Part shown: positions 22,960 through 32,002 of the stretch, in pieces
Numbering within the stretch: the first letter of the stretch is position 1
Layout of the letters: the number at the start of each line of letters is the position of its first letter
Assembly: GCA_964454265.1 (NCBI GenBank)
Contig: CAYVXD010000001.1
Coordinates: 13,136 to 77,135, forward strand
From: an uncultured Candidatus Sumerlaeota bacterium
GTDB taxonomy: Bacteria; Sumerlaeota; Sumerlaeia; MWCT01; JAUWMI01
Reading direction: 5' to 3'
DNA length: 64,000 nucleotides
The notes under the pieces: generated by a model
What the model was told of the DNA's origin: nothing
Databases searched by the model: none
What the model saw: only the letters and a program-made list of their open reading frames with translations
Position numbers and translations under genes: made by a program

Positions 22960-23591
22960 TCTCCCTCCAGAACTTTCAACGCCTCTTGTCTGGCTGCGGC
23001 TCTTCCCTGAGATCTGATCAAATAAGGAATATCCATATTCAGAATTTTGTTCAGAATAAGGGATTTCTTTTGAGGATCACTAATTTTTTCCAGGATGAGA
23101 TCACGCAGCTCGCCGAGCAGATCAACGTAATCGCCATATGTCTCGTCGAACAACCTCTCCAGGTTCTTGCGGATCCTCTTCGACAATGCTGGACATTTCC
23201 CATCGCTCGAGACTGCGACCTGGAATCCTCCCCGTTGCACCACTGCAGGAACAATAAAATTGCACAAATCCGGCGCGTCAACAACATTGACCAACAACCG
23301 GCGTCGCCTAGCTTCCACAGAGATTTCCCGGTTTAAATCCTCATCATCGGTCGCTACAAATACTAGATCAGCCCCATCAATATCGCCTGGCTGATAGCTC
23401 CGCTGGTGAAGAGTTATTTTCGCCCTTTTGGCGAGGTGCAAAAGCGCGGCGGTAACCTCTGGACTCACCACAGTTATCTGGGCATTGAACGGCAACAGAT
23501 TGTAGACTTTGCGTTCAGCAATCTTGCCGCCGCCAACAACCATACATTTAAGGGAGTCAAGTCCCAAGAGTATCGGATAATAGCGTGGCAT
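22953..23591 (-). CDS. sirC: Precorrin-2 dehydrogenase / sirohydrochlorin ferrochelatase (siroheme synthase N-terminal domain, SirC/Met8-like)
   Basis: The Rossmann motif LKCMVVGGGKIAERKV and a length of about 210 aa match CysG-N/SirC. It is co-oriented with hemA. Confidence 0.7.
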   Translation of the reverse strand: MPRYYPILLGLDSLKCMVVGGGKIAERKVYNLLPFNAQITVVSPEVTAALLHLAKRAKITLHQRSYQPGDIDGADLVFVATDDEDLNREISVEARRRRLLVNVVDAPDLCNFIVPAVVQRGGFQVAVSSDGKCPALSKRIRKNLERLFDETYGDYVDLLGELRDLILEKISDPQKKSLILNKILNMDIPYLIRSQGRAAARQEALKVLEGEW

Positions 23592-23780
23592 AGCAGAATG
23601 GAGTAAATCCTTTGAAATCTAAGTGATTGGCGTGCCTGAACTTACTGCAGGTGACTCTACAGAATTTGACTGTAATGTCAATAGTTTTCCTTGCTGTGAA
23701 CCTGCGGATGCTGTTCCCTGCGCTTGTCTGCTCCACCTGTGACACGCTCTACTGGTTACCCGCTTGTTTGTCTCTTCGTC

Positions 23781-23803
23781 GCCTCTCAGAGGCATGTTTT
23801 TTC
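23781..23803 (+). terminator. Intrinsic-terminator-like hairpin plus T-run on the plus strand, just upstream of the lysC promoter
   Basis: GCCTC-tca-GAGGC followed by atgTTTTTTc. Confidence 0.3.
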
Positions 23804-23816
23804 TCGTGATTTCTTC

Positions 23817-23845
23817 TTGACAAGCCTACTGAATCGCCATACAAA
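23817..23845 (+). promoter_or_regulatory. Sigma70-like promoter (TTGACA-N17-TACAAA) for lysC
   Basis: TTGACA at 23817-23822, a 17-nt spacer, then TACAAA. It lies about 70 nt upstream of the lysC start. Confidence 0.35.
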
Positions 23846-23917
23846 GAGAAGCTAATTTTTTATGCTGCCAGTCTGTGGTGAATTCTCTACAATGATCTTC
23901 ATGGGAGGCATTTCACA

Positions 23918-25138
23918 TTGGGTATTGTTGTGCAGAAATTTGGTGGGTCATCCGTGGCGGATGCCAAGAGAATCATAAGTGTAACTCGGAGGGTGATTGC
24001 TGAGAAGGATAAGGGAAACCGGGTAGTCGTCGTGGTCTCGGCCATGGGGAAAACAACCGACAATCTGCTGGCCCTGGCCTCGCAGATCACAGACAGGCCC
24101 GATCCGCGCGAGATTGATATGCTCATCTCAACTGGTGAGCAGATTTCCATCTCGTTGCTGGCAATTGCCATTCAATCCATGGGCTATCCGGCAATTTCGT
24201 TCACCGGTCCCCAGATCGGCATTTTGACTGATCAGATTCATCGCAAGGCAAAAATTGTTCACATTAACGACGAGAAGATCAAACGGGCACTGGAGGAGGG
24301 AAAGGTTGTCATCGTTGCCGGTTTTCAGGGGTGCACCCTGGAAAACGAGATCACCACACTGGGCAGGGGCGGCTCAGACACTACTGCCGTTGCCCTGGCG
24401 GCCGTGCTCGGGGCCGACGTGTGTGATATTTATACGGATGTTGACGGCGTTTATACCACCGACCCGCGCATCGTTAAGAATGCCCGCAAGCTCGACCGTA
24501 TCTCATACGACGAAATGTTGGAACTTGCCAGCCAGGGCGCCAAGGTGCTCTATTCTCGCGCCGTGGAATTTGCAAAGAAATACAATGTTCCGGTTCATGT
24601 ACGGTCTAGCTTTAATGACAACCCCGGCACCATGGTAGTGAAGGAGGAGAAAGATATGGAAGATATTGTTGTCAGCGGCGTGGCCTATAACCGCGACGAG
24701 GCAAAGATTTCCATACTCGGCGTGCCCGATCGGCCGGGAATTGCCGCTGAAATATTTGGCAGTCTGGGCGACGCCAATATCATCGTAGATATGATTATTC
24801 AGAACGTGGCCGAGAAGGCACTGAACGATATCTCCTTTACCGTTGGAAAGGATGACTTCAACGAAGCCCTTAATGTCGCCAAGCAGGAATGCAAACGCCT
24901 CAAGGCACGGGATGTCGTCTACGATACAGAGATCGCCAAAGTCTCGGTGGTCGGCGTTGGCATGAAAAGTCATTGTAGCGTGGCAGCCAAGATGTTCAGG
25001 GCTCTGGCAAAGAACAATATTAATATCGAGATGATCAGCACCTCGGAAATCAAAATCTCGTGCATCATCAATGGCAAAGATCTCGACAAGGCTGTGCAGG
25101 CGATTCACGACGAGTTTGAACTCGAGGTCGCAAAATAA
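23918..25138 (+). CDS. lysC: Aspartate kinase (monofunctional, with C-terminal ACT domains)
   Basis: MGIVVQKFGGSSVAD plus the AAK-fold motifs VVVVSAMGKTTD. Two ACT repeats follow. Confidence 0.9.
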   Translation: MGIVVQKFGGSSVADAKRIISVTRRVIAEKDKGNRVVVVVSAMGKTTDNLLALASQITDRPDPREIDMLISTGEQISISLLAIAIQSMGYPAISFTGPQIGILTDQIHRKAKIVHINDEKIKRALEEGKVVIVAGFQGCTLENEITTLGRGGSDTTAVALAAVLGADVCDIYTDVDGVYTTDPRIVKNARKLDRISYDEMLELASQGAKVLYSRAVEFAKKYNVPVHVRSSFNDNPGTMVVKEEKDMEDIVVSGVAYNRDEAKISILGVPDRPGIAAEIFGSLGDANIIVDMIIQNVAEKALNDISFTVGKDDFNEALNVAKQECKRLKARDVVYDTEIAKVSVVGVGMKSHCSVAAKMFRALAKNNINIEMISTSEIKISCIINGKDLDKAVQAIHDEFELEVAK

Positions 25139-26091
25139 TGCCCAAAAAGGGAAAGCCGGTTGATCTCAAGCGTGTCACGACGTACCCCATCCGTAGCCGC
25201 GTGAGTAAACTGGATCAGTCGTTGCTGGCACGGCTTCCCTCGCCCGATAAGCCTCTGGCCGAGTTTTTCCGCACCTGGCCAAAACTGCTAAAGGCCAAGG
25301 AATTCCTCCGCATCGCTGAGCGCATGGCCCATGCTCACCGGACCGACCGTGCTGTTGTTTGGATGATGGGCGCACATCCGATCAAGTGCGGCCTCTCGCC
25401 TCTGATTGTTGATCTGATTAAGCGTAAGGTCATCACCTGTGTTGCCATGAATGGCGGTGCTGCTATCCACGACTTCGAACTCGCCTTCTTCGGCCACACG
25501 AGCGAAGACGTCGACCGCGGCCTCGAAGACGGTTCCTTTGGCATGGCCCAGGAAACCGGTGAAGGCATGAACAACATCATCAACGAAGGCGTGCGCCGCG
25601 GTTACGGCATTGGCGAGGCACTTGGGCAGAGCATCCTGCGCCGTGGCGCTAAATTCCAGGAACTCAGCATCCTCTGCCAGGGTTTCAAAGACAACCTTCC
25701 GGTAACCGTCCACATTGCCTTGGGCACTGATATCATTCATCAGCATCCAAACGTGGATGGCGTGGCGCTTGGCAAGGGTGGTATTCTGGATTTTCGGATC
25801 CTGGCAGGTCAGCTGCCGGGCTTAAACGATGGTGGGGTAGTGATCAATTGCGGCTCGGCTGTGATTATGCCCGAGGTCTTCTTGAAGGCCCTGACAATCG
25901 CCCGCAACCTTGGCAATAAGGTAAAAGACTTCACCGCTGTGAACCTGGATATGATCGAGCACTACCGACCTATGGCTAATGTCCTCACCCGGCCAACCAG
26001 CCTTGGCGGCGAAGCCTATTCAATCGTAGGGCATCACGAGATCATACTTCCGCTTTTGTACTCAGCGATTCTCACTCAACTCAAGTCTTGA
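25138..26091 (+). CDS. Deoxyhypusine synthase-family (DHS-like) protein, putative
   Basis: MMGAHPIKCGLSPLIVDLIKRKVITCVAMNGGAAIHDFE resembles the DHS NAD-binding region (V..TTAGG.EED.I). A Gly-rich region matches later. The start ATG overlaps the lysC TAA as TAATG. Confidence 0.4.
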   Translation: MPKKGKPVDLKRVTTYPIRSRVSKLDQSLLARLPSPDKPLAEFFRTWPKLLKAKEFLRIAERMAHAHRTDRAVVWMMGAHPIKCGLSPLIVDLIKRKVITCVAMNGGAAIHDFELAFFGHTSEDVDRGLEDGSFGMAQETGEGMNNIINEGVRRGYGIGEALGQSILRRGAKFQELSILCQGFKDNLPVTVHIALGTDIIHQHPNVDGVALGKGGILDFRILAGQLPGLNDGGVVINCGSAVIMPEVFLKALTIARNLGNKVKDFTAVNLDMIEHYRPMANVLTRPTSLGGEAYSIVGHHEIILPLLYSAILTQLKS

Positions 26092-26336
26092 TATCCGATA
26101 CCCGTTCTGTGTACTGATTAGATGTGGATTAACACAGGCAGAGTAGTGGGAAATCACAGACTGGGTTATAACGGGCAGGCGTTCAGCAATACGCGAACTT
26201 GCGCTGCAGAGCCATCTTTGGCACTGCCCGTCCTTAGGAGCCGCAAAATTTGCCTTGCAAAAATCAACCGGAATTGTGATAGATAAATATGGAGTCGGTT
26301 GAGTATTATTAAATTTGTGCGCACGGGCTCGGCCTG

Positions 26337-27635
26337 ATGAACATTACGCTTCAATGCATTGATTGTGGAAAGCAGTACGATCCGCTGGAGCTTCGCTACA
26401 CGTGCGATTGCGGCGGCCTGCTCGACGCGATTCATGATCTCGACCGCCTGAAATCCTTGCCTCTTAAACAGCTCTTCGACGAGCGCTGGAACTCGCGCTC
26501 GTTTCCCTACAACTCCGGGGTCTGGCGCTATAGGGAACTCATTATTCCTGTTGATGATCAGTTCATAGTATCTAAACCGGAAGGGAACACCAATCTGTAT
26601 CCCGCCGGAAAGGCGGGTGAGTATGCTGGCCTGCGCCGCATGTTTCTCAAACATGAAGGTGAGAATCCCACCAGTTCATTTAAAGATCGTGGGATGACCT
26701 GCGGTATCACTATGGCACGGCTACTGCACGCCGACACTGTCGCCTGTGCCTCCACTGGCAACACCTCTGCCTCTATGACCGCCTACGCGGCCCTCGCTGG
26801 CATGCGGGCCATCATCTTCATCCCCGAAGGCAAGATCAGCTACGGCAAGCTAACCCAGGCCCTGGCGTACGGCGGGAAAACGTTCCAGATTCAGGGCAAT
26901 TTTGACGACGCCATGGCCCTCGTGGTGGAGGTCTGTAAGGAACTTAATATCTACCTTCTTAACTCCATCAACCCGTTCCGCATTGAAGGCCAGAAAGCAA
27001 TTGGCTTTGAGGTGCTTCAGCAGCTCAACTGGCAGATGCCAGACTGGTTCGTGCTGCCAGGGGGAAACCTGGGCAACAACAGTGCGCTGTCTAAAGGGCT
27101 GAAGGAGCTTTTCGACATTGGCCTTATTACTAAGATTCCGCGCATTGCTGTAATTCAGGCCGAAGGCGCCAACCCTCTTTACAAAATGTGGAAAGAGAAA
27201 ACTGCTTTCAAACCGGTCAGGCAACCCGAGACCATTGCAACCGCCATCAAAATCGGGAATCCCATCTCGTGGAAAAAGGCCATGCGAGGCATTGAGTGGA
27301 GCAACGGCGTTGTTGAGCAGGTCTCGGAGCAGGAAATCATGGATGCCAAAGCGTGGGTGGATGCCGTGGGAATTGGTGCTGAGCCTGCTTCTTGCTGCTC
27401 CATTGCTGGCGCTAAAAAGCTAGTTGAAAAGGGCGTGATCCATCCTGATGAACTGGTCATTGGTATTCTAACCGGTCATCTGCTCAAGGATCCTGAAGCC
27501 GTAATTCGCTACCACACGGGTGACCTCAAGTCGCTAGGGATTGAGTCGAGGTATGCGAATGCGCCGATTCGGATTGAACCTACACTTGATGCGGTGAGGG
27601 AGGCGCTCTATGAAGTACGTCGTGTTTCTCGCTGA
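26337..27635 (+). CDS. thrC: Threonine synthase
   Basis: N-terminal Cys4 zinc ribbon (CIDCGK...CDCGG), the PLP lysine motif SFKDRGM and the SINPFRIEGQK motif. Confidence 0.85.
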   Translation: MNITLQCIDCGKQYDPLELRYTCDCGGLLDAIHDLDRLKSLPLKQLFDERWNSRSFPYNSGVWRYRELIIPVDDQFIVSKPEGNTNLYPAGKAGEYAGLRRMFLKHEGENPTSSFKDRGMTCGITMARLLHADTVACASTGNTSASMTAYAALAGMRAIIFIPEGKISYGKLTQALAYGGKTFQIQGNFDDAMALVVEVCKELNIYLLNSINPFRIEGQKAIGFEVLQQLNWQMPDWFVLPGGNLGNNSALSKGLKELFDIGLITKIPRIAVIQAEGANPLYKMWKEKTAFKPVRQPETIATAIKIGNPISWKKAMRGIEWSNGVVEQVSEQEIMDAKAWVDAVGIGAEPASCCSIAGAKKLVEKGVIHPDELVIGILTGHLLKDPEAVIRYHTGDLKSLGIESRYANAPIRIEPTLDAVREALYEVRRVSR

Positions 27636-28815
27636 CGGAATGGCTGACGAGCCACTCCCGGAGCTCTCAAACAAAACACCACTTATGGTCGCTCGTACGC
27701 CTCACCTTGATCGCCTGGCGCGTAACGGCCGATGCGGAACACTCCTCACCTTGCCCGAAGGCTTTCCCACCAGCTCAGACGTTGCGAACCTCTCAGTGCT
27801 CGGCTACGACCTTGCATCCTGCTATACGGGTCGCGGCCCTCTTGAAGCAATCAGCCAGGGCATTAAACTCGGCCCTCATGATGTCGCATTCCGCTGTAAC
27901 CTGATCACTGCGAAGGACGGCGTCCTTGACGAATACTCGGGCGGGCACATCAGTAGCGAGGAAGCGTGCGAACTCATACATGCCCTGGACGAAAAATTTG
28001 GCACTCCCAAAATCCGCTTCCATCCGGGCGTTAGTTATCGGAACATTCTGATTCTTTCTGGCGAGGAGTTTTCTGACCAACTTGAATACCACAAGCCCGA
28101 TAGCTCCCACGGTATGGCGATTCGCTCGATCTTGCTTGCGCCGAAGGAGCCAGATGCGAAAGCGACCGCAGAGCTCCTCAATCAGATGACTCTCGATTCG
28201 GAAGATTTGCTCAGCAGCCATCCAGTTAACAAGAAACGCGTTTCCGAGGGAAAGAAACCTGCTAATATGATCTGGCTATGGAGCCCGGGTAAAAAGCCTG
28301 AGCTCGAAGCCTTTCACCGCAAGTACGGCCGCCACGGTGCCATTATCTCGGCCGTTGACGTCATCTTTGGCATTGGTATTGCTGCTGGCATGAAGATCAT
28401 CAAAGTGCCAGGCGCAACCGGCTATATTGATACGAATTACGAAGGGAAAGCTGATGCTGCGCTTAAGGCACTCCAACGCGTGGACTTTGTGTATGTGCAC
28501 GTTGAAGCGATTGACGAAGTCAGCCACCTTGGTAAGCTTGACCTTAAGCTGCAGGCGATCAAAGACTTCGACCGCCGAGTGTTAGGCCATTTCCTCGAAC
28601 GCTGCCCACCCGGTGTGACTGTTGCTGTTCTGCCCGACCATCCTGTGCCCCTCAAACTCCGCAAGCACACCCGCACACCCGTGCCATTTGCCATCTACAA
28701 ACCCGGAACAACGCCTGACATGGTTGCTGAGTTTAATGAGTATTCCTGCCACGAAGGGAGTCTCGGCGAGCTCAAAGGCGATGGCTTTATGAAAGCTCTC
28801 TTCCGTACCGCATGA
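27610..28815 (+). CDS. Cofactor-independent phosphoglycerate mutase-like (ApgM/alkaline-phosphatase superfamily) protein; proposed non-orthologous homoserine kinase
   Basis: MKYVVFLADGMADEPLPEL..KTPL is the ApgM-family N-terminus. The start overlaps the thrC end by 26 nt. This family is known to cluster with thrA/thrC in Bacteroides-type thr operons. Confidence 0.6.
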   Translation: MKYVVFLADGMADEPLPELSNKTPLMVARTPHLDRLARNGRCGTLLTLPEGFPTSSDVANLSVLGYDLASCYTGRGPLEAISQGIKLGPHDVAFRCNLITAKDGVLDEYSGGHISSEEACELIHALDEKFGTPKIRFHPGVSYRNILILSGEEFSDQLEYHKPDSSHGMAIRSILLAPKEPDAKATAELLNQMTLDSEDLLSSHPVNKKRVSEGKKPANMIWLWSPGKKPELEAFHRKYGRHGAIISAVDVIFGIGIAAGMKIIKVPGATGYIDTNYEGKADAALKALQRVDFVYVHVEAIDEVSHLGKLDLKLQAIKDFDRRVLGHFLERCPPGVTVAVLPDHPVPLKLRKHTRTPVPFAIYKPGTTPDMVAEFNEYSCHEGSLGELKGDGFMKALFRTA

Positions 28816-29122
28816 TGTTGACACCCGCCTTGTAAACCCTAGCGAACTCTGAAAATGACCTGATCTGAATCCTGCTGGCACGAAATAGAATTTATGGCGT
28901 AGCCACTGCTGGAACGACGAAATATTTTCTCCGAGCATCAGCTATCGTATCATAAAACTTCTATCAAGCGGACAGCAACCACAGCGAATTTTTCCAAGGA
29001 GCCCTTTATTCAAATTCCTGCCAGGTCTATAACCCTTTCCGGCCTTGCACCATGCCTGAACAAGGCAACTGTGCGGCAGTGTTTGGTCACCCCTCAAGCC
29101 GTCTGAGTGTAATGAAAAAGCA

Positions 29123-29151
29123 TTGACTTTTCATGGGGTTTCTCCTATCAA
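29123..29151 (+). promoter_or_regulatory. Sigma70-like promoter (TTGACT-N17-TATCAA) upstream of hisH
   Basis: TTGACT at 29123-29128, a 17-nt spacer, then TATCAA at 29146-29151. It is about 50 nt upstream of the hisH ATG. Confidence 0.35.
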
Positions 29152-29199
29152 GAGACTTCTTAAATTTCAGAGTTGATTTTTTTACCTTATGGCACTGAA

Positions 29200-29814
29200 A
29201 TGAGCATCGTTATTATAGATTATGGGATGGGGAATCTGCGCAGTGTGGAGAAGGCGTTTGTGCGCCTGGGGTTTACGGTGGAGATTACGTCTGACCCGGA
29301 CGCTATCAATCGCGCAGAAAAGATTGTAGTACCCGGTGTTGGCGCTTTTGGCGACGCCATGCGCGAGTTGCGCGAGCGCGGTCTAATCGAGCCTCTTCTG
29401 TGCGCAATCACTGATCAGCGTCCCTTTCTTGGCATCTGCCTTGGCTTGCAGGTGCTCTTTGAAGGAAGCGAAGAAGCCCCAAATGTCCCAGGACTTGGCG
29501 TGATCCCAGGTCTCGTGAAGCGCCTTCAGACCGACCTTAAGGTGCCCCATATGGGCTGGAATACGCTTCATGTTATTCGCCGTCCCCCGATCCTTGACGG
29601 CATTTCCGACAGCGCCTACGTCTATTTTGTCCATTCCTACTACGTTGAGCCGATGGATGGCTCCGTCACTGCAACCACAACAGACTATGGCATTTCGTTC
29701 ACCTCGATGATCTGGAGGGGCAACCTTTTTGCCACTCAGTTCCACCCCGAGAAGAGCCAGGCAGTGGGGTTAGAGATTCTAAAAAAGTTCGGAGAATATC
29801 GTGGCGAAACCTGA
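29200..29814 (+). CDS. hisH: Imidazole glycerol phosphate synthase glutamine amidotransferase subunit
   Basis: IVIIDYGMGNLRSV, the catalytic Cys region GICLGLQ and PHMGWN are HisH signatures (class I GATase). No hisF lies next to it. Confidence 0.75.
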   Translation: MSIVIIDYGMGNLRSVEKAFVRLGFTVEITSDPDAINRAEKIVVPGVGAFGDAMRELRERGLIEPLLCAITDQRPFLGICLGLQVLFEGSEEAPNVPGLGVIPGLVKRLQTDLKVPHMGWNTLHVIRRPPILDGISDSAYVYFVHSYYVEPMDGSVTATTTDYGISFTSMIWRGNLFATQFHPEKSQAVGLEILKKFGEYRGET

Positions 29815-30736
29815 TCAAACGGGCATCAGAATCAAAGTACCCGCATCTACCACAAATCTTGGGCCAGGCTATGATTGCCTAGGCCTTGCTCTGAAACTTT
29901 ACAATTATATTGAATTCGAGCGGCTGCCGCGCGGAAAAACGCAGCTCATCTGGCAAGGCGAACAAAATGACGCCATGCGTCCGCATGTTGAGAAGCTCGT
30001 ACTGCGAGCAGCAAGAGAGATATTTGATTTGTGCGGAGTTAGTGCTCCAGGCTTGAGAATTACCTTGAAGCTCAATATCCCCATTGCACGAGGGCTTGGC
30101 AGTAGTGCAACCGCCATTATCGCCGGCATGGTCGCAGCGAATGAATTATGTGGCAGTCGGATTTCCCGAGAAAAGCTTCTGGTACAGAGCGCAAAGTTTG
30201 AAGGGCATCCTGACAACGTCACGGCTTGCTTTCTGGGTGGTTTAACTGCTTCAACGTTTAGTGGAGATGGTCTTGCGATCAGGAAGTATCGACTCAGAAG
30301 TGCGCTCAAAGTGGTTGTTGTTGTCCCCTCCTATGGTCTGGAAACCAGAAAGGCGCGCGCGGTGATTCCGAAGCACGTGAAGCACCGTGACGCAGTGTTT
30401 AACCTCAGCCGCGTTCCTCTGGTGATTGATCGCCTGGTTACGGGCGAATTATCTGACCTTCAGCGCTTGATGCAGGATCGCCTCCACCAGCCTTATCGTA
30501 AACCGTTGATTAAAGGTTATGACCAGATTGTCAGAGCCGGCCTGAATGCAGGTGCGGGTGCAGTAGTACTCAGCGGCGCAGGCCCTTCCATGGTCGCTTT
30601 TTGCACCTCCAATGTTGAACAGGTTGCCACGTCCATGGGGGAGATTCTGAGCACCCTTAACATATCAAACTACGTCTTGATTCTCTCGCCGGATAATCGC
30701 GGAACCGTTGTCGAACACTTTGACCGTATCTCATAG
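29801..30736 (+). CDS. thrB: Homoserine kinase (GHMP kinase)
   Basis: KVPASTTNLGPGYDCLGLAL, the GHMP motif PIARGLGSSAT and the expected length of about 310 aa. Confidence 0.85.
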   Translation: MAKPDQTGIRIKVPASTTNLGPGYDCLGLALKLYNYIEFERLPRGKTQLIWQGEQNDAMRPHVEKLVLRAAREIFDLCGVSAPGLRITLKLNIPIARGLGSSATAIIAGMVAANELCGSRISREKLLVQSAKFEGHPDNVTACFLGGLTASTFSGDGLAIRKYRLRSALKVVVVVPSYGLETRKARAVIPKHVKHRDAVFNLSRVPLVIDRLVTGELSDLQRLMQDRLHQPYRKPLIKGYDQIVRAGLNAGAGAVVLSGAGPSMVAFCTSNVEQVATSMGEILSTLNISNYVLILSPDNRGTVVEHFDRIS

Positions 30737-30796
30737 ACTTTTTACATTATCAACTCCCTTCGAAACGTCAGTGGGGCAGGGCCTGGAGCATGTGTA

Positions 30797-32002
30797 ATGC
30801 CTGATCTGAAGGTAACATTTTGTGGCGTTCCTTTTGAGAATCCCTTTCTGCTTGCCGCAGCACCATCAACAGATGAGCTCGACATGGTGCGACGCGCTTA
30901 CGAGTCCGGATGGGCAGGCGCAGTATTAAAAACAACATCTGTGGTCGGTACGCGTGTACCCCTCAGGTACCCGCTCCTGGCTGCATCGGCCGACCCGAAT
31001 CGCAAGCTCTATGCCTTGGGCAACATTGATCTGATCTCGAAGTATCACGTTGACGTTGTGGCGGAGCGCATACAGACACTTGCTCGCGAATTCCCGGAGA
31101 AGGTCACAGTTCCCAGCATCATGGGCGCTACGCTGGAACAGTGGAAGACCCTGGTTCATATATGCGAGCAGGCAGGGGCCAGAGTCATTGAGTGCAGCGT
31201 CAGCTGTCCACAAGGCACGCTTGGATCAAAGCCCGGCTTGATGTTGGGCCAGGATGTTGGGTTGGTTGAGGAGATCACGCGCTTGCTCGTCAGCGCCGCC
31301 ACGGTCTCCCGTATTGTGGTGAAACTTACTCCACTCGTAGCTGATATTGTTGAAACTGCCCGTGCTGTGAAACGAGCAGGGGCACATGCGGTCTCCGCAA
31401 TCAACACCATACCATCTCTCATGGGTGTTGATCTCGAAACTCTGGTTCCTCAGCCTGATGTTGGCGGCAAATCTACTTACAGCGGGCTCTCGGGTCCGGC
31501 GATAAAACCCGTGATGCTTCGGGCTGTTGCAGAAATTGTGCGCCATACCGGCCTGGAGGTGACGGCTACCGGCGGGATTATGAGCTGGCGCGATAGCGTG
31601 GAATCATTGCTGGTTGGAGCTCGTACGGTGCAGCTCTGCACGGCAGTGATGCTGAATGGCTTCGGTGTTATCAATGAGTTGCGCGATGGCCTGCAGCGCT
31701 TTATGGAGGGCAAGGGATTCGAGCACGTAGAAGATGTCATTGGCCGGTCCCTCCCGCACATTGTCACCTTCGACGAGCTACCCGAGCAGTTTCACGTGCG
31801 AGCGCGGATTGATCTGACAAAATGTACCCGATGTGGCCGATGCTTTATTGCTTGTCGCGATGGCGGTCACGTGGCTGTTCGCATGGAAGCAGATAAACAA
31901 CCAAGCATTGACGACACACGATGCGTGGGGTGCGGCTTGTGCCAAATTGTCTGTCCGGTTGAGCGCTGTATCAGTATGGCTGCAATAGCGAAGTCCCCTT
32001 GA
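30797..32002 (+). CDS. Dihydroorotate/dihydropyrimidine dehydrogenase-family flavoprotein with two C-terminal 4Fe-4S ferredoxin motifs (PreA-like)
   Basis: DHOD-like TIM barrel (VPFENPFLLAAAP, KLTPL, TATGGI) plus CTRCGRCFIAC and CVGCGLCQIVCP cluster motifs. Length 401 aa, like E. coli PreA. Confidence 0.65.
   Translation: MPDLKVTFCGVPFENPFLLAAAPSTDELDMVRRAYESGWAGAVLKTTSVVGTRVPLRYPLLAASADPNRKLYALGNIDLISKYHVDVVAERIQTLAREFPEKVTVPSIMGATLEQWKTLVHICEQAGARVIECSVSCPQGTLGSKPGLMLGQDVGLVEEITRLLVSAATVSRIVVKLTPLVADIVETARAVKRAGAHAVSAINTIPSLMGVDLETLVPQPDVGGKSTYSGLSGPAIKPVMLRAVAEIVRHTGLEVTATGGIMSWRDSVESLLVGARTVQLCTAVMLNGFGVINELRDGLQRFMEGKGFEHVEDVIGRSLPHIVTFDELPEQFHVRARIDLTKCTRCGRCFIACRDGGHVAVRMEADKQPSIDDTRCVGCGLCQIVCPVERCISMAAIAKSP

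Follow-up and report, generated by a model that had tools for sequence, protein, structure and literature searches.

The characterised relatives of the gene described here, deoxyhypusine synthase (DHS) and the ornithine cyclodeaminases (OCD), bind a nicotinamide-type cofactor tightly and use it for 'borrowed-hydride' chemistry. In DHS the cofactor (NAD) site lies at strand-end loops, and Lys329 of the human enzyme is the catalytic lysine that forms an enzyme-imine intermediate. HldD (RfaD/GmhD; TIGR02197) is the NADP-dependent ADP-L-glycero-D-manno-heptose 6-epimerase, which passes a hydride transiently to the nicotinamide cofactor that it binds. The gene in question lies on a stretch of 64,000 nucleotides (the window; contig CAYVXD010000001.1, assembly GCA_964454265.1) from an uncultured Candidatus Sumerlaeota bacterium, where it overlaps the aspartate kinase gene lysC; its product, the 317-amino-acid (aa) ORF at 25138..26091 (+), is labelled X throughout. 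We read X as a heptose-pathway enzyme of the GSU2086 family and its overlap with lysC as a lineage-specific operon arrangement, and give this reading a probability of roughly 0.7.

X matches the NCBIfam model NF052581 ('GSU2086 family protein'; type member GSU2086 of Geobacter sulfurreducens) over its full length with 402.3 bits (E 1.5e-120, cut-off 250). Residues 7–309 align with positions 1–300 of the 301 in the model, and all of the family-invariant residues are present. X is an ordinary new member of a widespread, catalogued and uncharacterised family, which has more than 8000 matches in 90% clusters, nearly all of them named hypothetical; an exhaustive hidden Markov model search of 50%-identity representatives returned 3360 at E≤1e-3, a number that falls to 990 with the stricter limit of E≤1e-30. 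About 60 positions are invariant in the family, mostly in strand-end loops and many of them charged or polar, and the invariant histidines are H80, H111, H201 and H299.

The initial annotation had called X DHS-like from motif similarity, and for the fold and superfamily this stands. The motif VAMNGGAAIHDFE lies inside the sole stretch of X (residues 54–119) that matches the Pfam DS family (PF01916), and an AlphaFold2 model built on a 40-sequence alignment is confident (pLDDT 90.2, pTM 0.86) and predicts a Rossmann fold of the DHS type, in which a dinucleotide site lies where the strands end. At the level of the family the assignment fails, with 14.8 bits (E 0.017) against a PF01916 cut-off of 27. 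X was rejected as a DHS or homospermidine synthase on this score and on the missing counterpart of the catalytic lysine; an hhalign alignment of the family profile with human DHS (a sequence identical to PDB 1rlz_A) sets Thr287 opposite Lys329, albeit with a very low probability that makes it a rough guide.

Structure comparison places X with DHS in fold, but its closest relatives in both structure and sequence are the C-terminal OCD domain of AgrE/ArgZ (PF21570; PDB 6lrf, 6juy) and 3c2q, which we take to be a TIGR00300 member, and not DHS. Identity to these is 13–16%, and X lies below both cut-offs (24.1 bits against 27 for PF21570, ArgZ-like_C_2nd, and 12.7 against 410.8 for TIGR00300); some close homologues of X narrowly pass that of PF21570. 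The sub-threshold Pfam matches, to PF21570 and PF01916, span residues ~54–173, and a profile search of PDB sequences gave weak matches to 3c2q (E 0.019), Sll1336, Alr4995 and a DHS. The motif A-x-H-D-x-E-x-A-x-[FY]-G-x-T-S is common to the X family, 3c2q and Sll1336, whereas DHS has GGVEEDLI there, with EED in place of HD-x-E; H80 and other X-invariant residues are unmatched in 3c2q. Alongside DHS and the AgrE/TIGR00300 OCDs, the GSU2086 family makes up a third branch of the DHS-like Rossmann superfamily, somewhat nearer to the cyclodeaminases than to DHS.

The genomic context of the X family is one of sugar nucleotides and not of arginine/ornithine; no eIF5A link was seen, and the neighbours examined included no identified polyamine gene. 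We surveyed 164 loci, comprising 80 from species-representative genomes, 80 from metagenomes and four around closer homologues. The ORFs of the 80 genome loci were clustered and the cluster representatives profile-scanned, and a Pfam census of 98 operonic neighbours is headed by PfkB (19), CTP_transf_3/KdsB (15) and SIS_2/GmhA (11), with GT9 (6), Wzy_C (4) and AA_kinase (2) following. One neighbour representative is a heptose-7-phosphate kinase above the cut-off (rfaE_dom_I, 362 bits); KdsB, KdsA, KdsC, heptosyltransferase II and a KpsF/GutQ-family (KdsD-like) isomerase were also confirmed, and the GmhA representative has GmhA as its best match, yet falls below the equivalog cut-offs. GT9 heptosyltransferases, GT4 glycosyltransferases and an O-antigen-ligase-like protein (a weak match) are recurrent neighbours as well.

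An HldE-kinase homologue is present in 48 of the 164 loci (E. coli protein queries) and begins 10–60 nt after the X stop in almost all of the locus rows inspected. GmhB follows in five loci, including an Akkermansia-labelled one, and the adenylyltransferase domain (HldC) occurs in three. HldD was not found in the 164 loci with the E. coli HldD query; the only match to a short-chain dehydrogenase/reductase (SDR), in L083, is TviC/GalE-like (140 bits against a TIGR02197 cut-off of 274.6). GSU2086 itself sits between hldE and gmhA in Geobacter, whereas the lysC-overlapping X is in a 64-kb window where no heptose gene was found; in transposon sequencing (Tn-seq) the electrode defect of GSU2086 (−3.2) agrees with those of its neighbours (−3.1 and −3.7; PMC5585712). 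Our literature searches returned 'GSU2086' in one Tn-seq table only, and no paper tying DHS or a DHS-like protein to heptose or ADP-heptose.

Several of the best 150 representatives are longer than 400 aa, and Pfam and NCBIfam scans show X fused to each canonical ADP-heptose enzyme except HldD (Table 1). Several of the fusion clusters are recurrent (13, 19, 5 and 3 members), lie on contigs of up to 112 kb and derive from several sources; they are not assembly accidents. The 19 members of the triple-fusion cluster P0159 include some labelled Woesearchaeota archaeon, which suggests that the heptose pathway is present outside the classical diderm bacteria, and the fusion itself suggests that a DUF89 damage-control phosphatase may stand in for GmhB. 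In P0121 (679 aa) two copies of X stand in tandem, and the second has degenerated at family-invariant residues (H111 to Q, TSED to GTEE). The arrangement suggests a dimer, would suit an oligomer of the DHS kind whose sites lie at the interfaces, and is reminiscent of trypanosome DHS, a heteromer of a catalytic subunit and a dead paralogue. Heptose, Kdo and heptosyltransferase operon settings and the fusions span at least ten phylum-level labels, a pan-phylum link to nucleotide-heptose synthesis that speaks for LPS-core sugar chemistry rather than for aminobutyl transfer from aspartate semialdehyde.

Given that its partners and fusions comprise GmhA, HldA/HldE, GmhB, HldC, Kdo enzymes and GT9, X most likely works in the synthesis of the inner-core heptose of lipopolysaccharide (LPS). 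Its function beyond 'heptose pathway' is a hypothesis. The invariant positions, mostly at strand-end loops, suggest that X is catalytic, and by likeness to its DHS and OCD relatives it would bind a nicotinamide-type cofactor for a transient oxidation and re-reduction; the substrate would be ADP-heptose or a heptose phosphate. The step left unassigned in the clusters is C6 epimerisation of (ADP-)heptose, for which X would be the leading candidate as a non-orthologous 6-epimerase. Because the relatives use hydride chemistry and HldD is never beside or fused to X, a cofactor-dependent oxidation/re-reduction enzyme is most likely. Among the canonical ADP-heptose enzymes only HldD was never seen as a neighbour or fusion partner of X, and it is the proposed functional analogue; HldD has an SDR fold and X a predicted DHS-like one, with no sequence similarity between them. 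That the family is a fifth nucleotide-heptose enzyme on the DHS/OCD fold, most likely replacing HldD by transient hydride transfer (D,D-/L,D-heptose) and maybe using a nickel-pincer cofactor in some lineages, is a tentative proposal, and we would put it well short of an even chance.

The locus labelled Akkermansia muciniphila (L068:6001-8405) has the order X, monofunctional heptose-7-phosphate kinase (hldA), gmhB. Papers on the lipooligosaccharide (LOS) of Akkermansia report heptose and do not give its C6 configuration, and the KEGG annotation of A. muciniphila comprises GmhA, HldE (Amuc_0415) and GmhB, with HldD unmentioned (PMC9427033). This gene list and the heptose in the LOS are compatible with epimerisation by X, although they are not decisive.

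The same context and fusions would also accommodate an X that belongs to the heptose pathway and is not an epimerase, acting instead at another step (as a heptose-phosphate isomerase or mutase, a proof-reading hydrolase, or in making a modified heptose) or serving as a non-catalytic scaffold or regulator that binds ADP-heptose in a former NAD site. ADP-heptose resembles the ADP-ribose moiety bound by this fold, the histidine-rich invariant set suggests a metal, and the tandem protein with its degenerate second copy fits an oligomer with regulatory subunits. However, the many charged or polar invariant residues at strand-end loops, the position of the DHS cofactor site, favour catalysis over the scaffold version, and every other canonical step has an enzyme beside X in some lineage. 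We regard these roles, taken together, as rather unlikely.

The current NCBIfam name of TIGR00300 is nickel-pincer-nucleotide-dependent ornithine cyclodeaminase, and a 2025 paper by Desguin reportedly concerns an NPAD-dependent OCD. The nickel-pincer cofactor of this enzyme is cited in PMC13524815. In two Binatia loci a LarB gene (NF033503, 296 bits; L020:233-982 and L056:1356-2105) shares the strand of gmhA-X and precedes it by four to five genes, with an AIRS-like protein just upstream of LarB, and an archease and an HD-domain protein between LarB and gmhA. Searches of the other related loci and of the window gave no LarB. The c40 and c53 ORFs near LarB were considered as LarC/LarE and rejected, being AIRS-like and HD-domain proteins. 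A nickel-pincer variant of X has a low probability, and is retained because of LarB near gmhA-X in these two loci and the cofactor of the OCD relatives.

We turn now to the overlap with lysC. The lysC product matches NF005155 (619 bits) and TIGR00656 (458 bits) in the NCBIfam profile scan and has the Pfam domains AA_kinase and two ACT_9, and its assignment as an aspartate kinase is beyond doubt. GGGAGG precedes the lysC TTG (23918) with a spacing of 9 nt. The TAATG overlap reported at its other end is borne out: the lysC stop TAA (25136–25138) and the X ATG (25138–25140) share one base, the final A of TAA, and a Shine-Dalgarno-like GAGG (25124–25127) lies 10 nt ahead of the ATG. Positions 25120–25140 read ...ctcGAGGtcgcaaaaTAATGccc and the junction letters are GAGGtcgcaaaaTAATG. 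The X start is consistent with its homologues, the family alignment opening at residues 1–7. By the ORF listing, at least eight other same-strand gene pairs of the window overlap by 1–26 nt, among them 47664-48866/48866-49645 and 18317-18793/18790-20502, so a TAATG is not in itself unusual here. The overlap is predicted to give co-expression, and possibly translational coupling.

A lysC gene lies directly 5' of the X homologue in seven of the 164 loci (L001, L003 and L081–L085), with a 4-nt, ATGA-type overlap in L001 and L081–L084 and a 17-nt gap in L003 by ORF calls. Relative to the window, X is 54–69% and LysC 71–80% identical in these loci. In a neighbour-joining (NJ) tree of all X sequences the seven and the window form one exclusive clade, in which eight of eight are lysC-linked; its named members are Sumerlaeota, and one is labelled Hydrogenedentota. 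The other 157 loci lack the link, including another Sumerlaeota genome (L002). Within the clade the flanks vary, with thrC-apgM in the window, an opposite-strand gene in L081, and a CarboxypepD_reg protein beside the pair in L001, L003 and L083. In L081, the closest long relative (X 69% identical), a gmhA-like gene lies 4 kb 3' of lysC-X.

In L083 (L083:5246-8960, GCA_026416205.1) and L084 asd is followed by the gene of a Rieske [2Fe-2S] protein and then by lysC and X, and in L083, whose X is 54% identical to that of the window, dapB lies 7 kb downstream. A small Rieske protein is thereby placed inside an aspartate-pathway operon.

Since lysC is kept 5' of X in seven loci with differing other flanks, the pairing is above chance within one lineage; lysC-X is a stable operon feature of a single origin in one lineage, apparently Sumerlaeota. 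It had been proposed that lysC and X serve a common pathway drawing on aspartate semialdehyde, X acting as a DHS- or homospermidine-synthase-like aminobutyl (or aminopropyl-carboxy) transferase that leads to an unusual polyamine or diamine. Conservation of the pair, which was expected to bear on this, is found throughout the one clade and in none of the remaining loci, and the profile search places X in a different named family, NF052581. The overlap kept in the clade, asd two genes upstream in L083 and L084, and dapB nearby could be taken to favour such a transferase; the family score, the absence of a Lys329 equivalent (Thr287 in a low-confidence alignment), the 157 loci without lysC, one of them a Sumerlaeota genome, and the lack of polyamine genes among the neighbours examined all run counter to it. 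Moreover, orthologues at about the same distance lie among ADP-heptose genes or form fusions with the enzymes of that pathway: NJ distances to the nearest, heptose-linked outgroups are 0.44–0.47, against 0.45 for the deepest clade members. The lysC order being limited to one clade, and X being no more diverged than its heptose-linked relatives, the polyamine explanation is disfavoured and in our estimate very improbable. The overlap does not indicate a pathway shared with aspartate semialdehyde.

The nearness of lysC, asd and dapB in this clade could also favour an X that is a cyclodeaminase or dehydrogenase of an aspartate-family amino acid, for example lysine or diaminobutyrate, and such an activity would agree with the HD-x-E...G-x-TS motif held in common with the AgrE C-domain and TIGR00300 relatives. 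Against this stand the low identity and sub-threshold scores to those relatives, the sugar-nucleotide rather than amino-acid context of the family as a whole, and fusion partners that are exclusively heptose-pathway or phosphatase domains. We see scarcely any likelihood that X is an enzyme of this kind.

A number of points weigh against X as a heptose-pathway enzyme, or against epimerisation as its step. Within its clade the lysC-X pair has outlived rearrangement of both of its flanks, and in one relative it has asd and dapB near it, so that a functional tie to the aspartate pathway is possible. Heptose and Kdo genes (gmhA, hldA/E, gmhB, kds, GT9) were not found in the 64-kb window by tblastn with neighbour-cluster representatives and E. 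coli GmhB, HldD, HldE, WaaC and WaaF. The putative epimerase assignment derives from elimination and mechanistic analogy, and cofactor binding by X is predicted from the fold; the invariant histidines could form a metal site with a different chemistry. The absence of HldD covers flanks of up to ~6 kb (8 kb in L081–L084) and is weak evidence, because hldD often lies away from the other heptose genes, as in E. coli, where it is with waaFC. The Tn-seq phenotype in Geobacter could reflect a polar effect on gmhA, and no biochemical assay or unambiguous genetic experiment on a GSU2086-family member was found in the literature.

The surroundings of lysC-X in the window comprise a threonine cluster on the 3' side (Table 1). 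On the + strand a promoter/terminator scan showed nothing resembling a terminator from 26091 to 26337, and thrC is possibly on the same transcript as lysC-X. It lies outside the conserved pair, and thrC beside X was not seen in related loci in tblastn screens; its place is taken by a cluster-39 protein in L001 and L003 and by a CarboxypepD_reg protein in L083. The apgM-like gene and thrC overlap by 26 nt; NF003242, which the apgM-like product matches, is the model of the cofactor-independent phosphoglycerate mutase. The cluster has two candidate homoserine kinases, the apgM-like gene and thrB, with hisH between them, an apparent redundancy. Upstream of lysC the opposite strand carries a cysG N-domain, a ccsB-like gene and hemA, and beyond these a 570-aa ORF that we take, from its translation alone, to be ilvB. 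Over the range 23400–30900 the promoter/terminator scan gave site counts at or below those of shuffled sequence, with no convincing signal near lysC-X. An Rfam scan of the whole window found no lysine, S-adenosylmethionine or other riboswitch ahead of lysC; its sole match at the gathering threshold is a tRNA at 2487–2560 (−).

Table 1. Features of the window at and downstream of lysC-X, and domain fusions of X homologues (cluster identifiers in place of coordinates)
Feature	Position or cluster	Strand	Remarks
lysC, monofunctional aspartate kinase	23918..25138	+	406 aa, TTG start, two ACT domains
lysC/X junction	25124..25140	+	Shine-Dalgarno-like GAGG; TAA and ATG sharing one base
X, GSU2086-family protein, predicted DHS/ornithine-cyclodeaminase-like Rossmann fold, candidate heptose-pathway enzyme	25138..26091	+	317 aa
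thrC, threonine synthase	26337..27635	+	TIGR00260 281 bits; 245 nt 3' of X
apgM-like metalloenzyme, 'proposed homoserine kinase'	27610..28815	+	TIGR02535 500 bits; NF003242 508 bits
thrB, canonical GHMP	29801-30736		TIGR00191 253 bits
X+rfaE_dom_II fusion	P0130, P0137, P0141, P0179, P0252		P0130 199 bits, above cut-off
GmhA+X fusion	P0149		
X+GmhA fusion	P0227		
X+kinase fusion	P0201		
X+complete HldE fusion	P0207		
GmhB-like HAD-IIIA+X fusion	P0233		
DUF89 phosphatase+HldC-like adenylyltransferase+X fusion	P0159		826 aa, e.g. HIG96611.1

Taken alone, the pairing with lysC is modestly interesting, and no new route from aspartate semialdehyde is supported. What it has exposed is a large, functionally unassigned family, with more than 3000 clusters at 50% identity in many phyla, that operons and fusions tie tightly to ADP-heptose synthesis and that may well supply an enzyme missing from that pathway or an alternative to a known one. 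ADP-heptose is an essential precursor of the LPS core, an antibiotic-adjuvant target, and the ligand that the human innate sensor ALPK1 recognises; LPS biochemists would therefore be interested in an enzyme of its pathway that has no assigned role and occurs both in gut bacteria like Akkermansia and in phyla of the environment. In Akkermansia, a medically relevant gut genus, X is an unstudied gene within an ADP-heptose locus. If the tentative proposal of a fifth nucleotide-heptose enzyme is correct, X would be part of the production of the LPS core and of ADP-heptose, the ALPK1 agonist, in Akkermansia, Geobacter, Nitrospira, Omnitrophota, Planctomycetota and many uncultured phyla.

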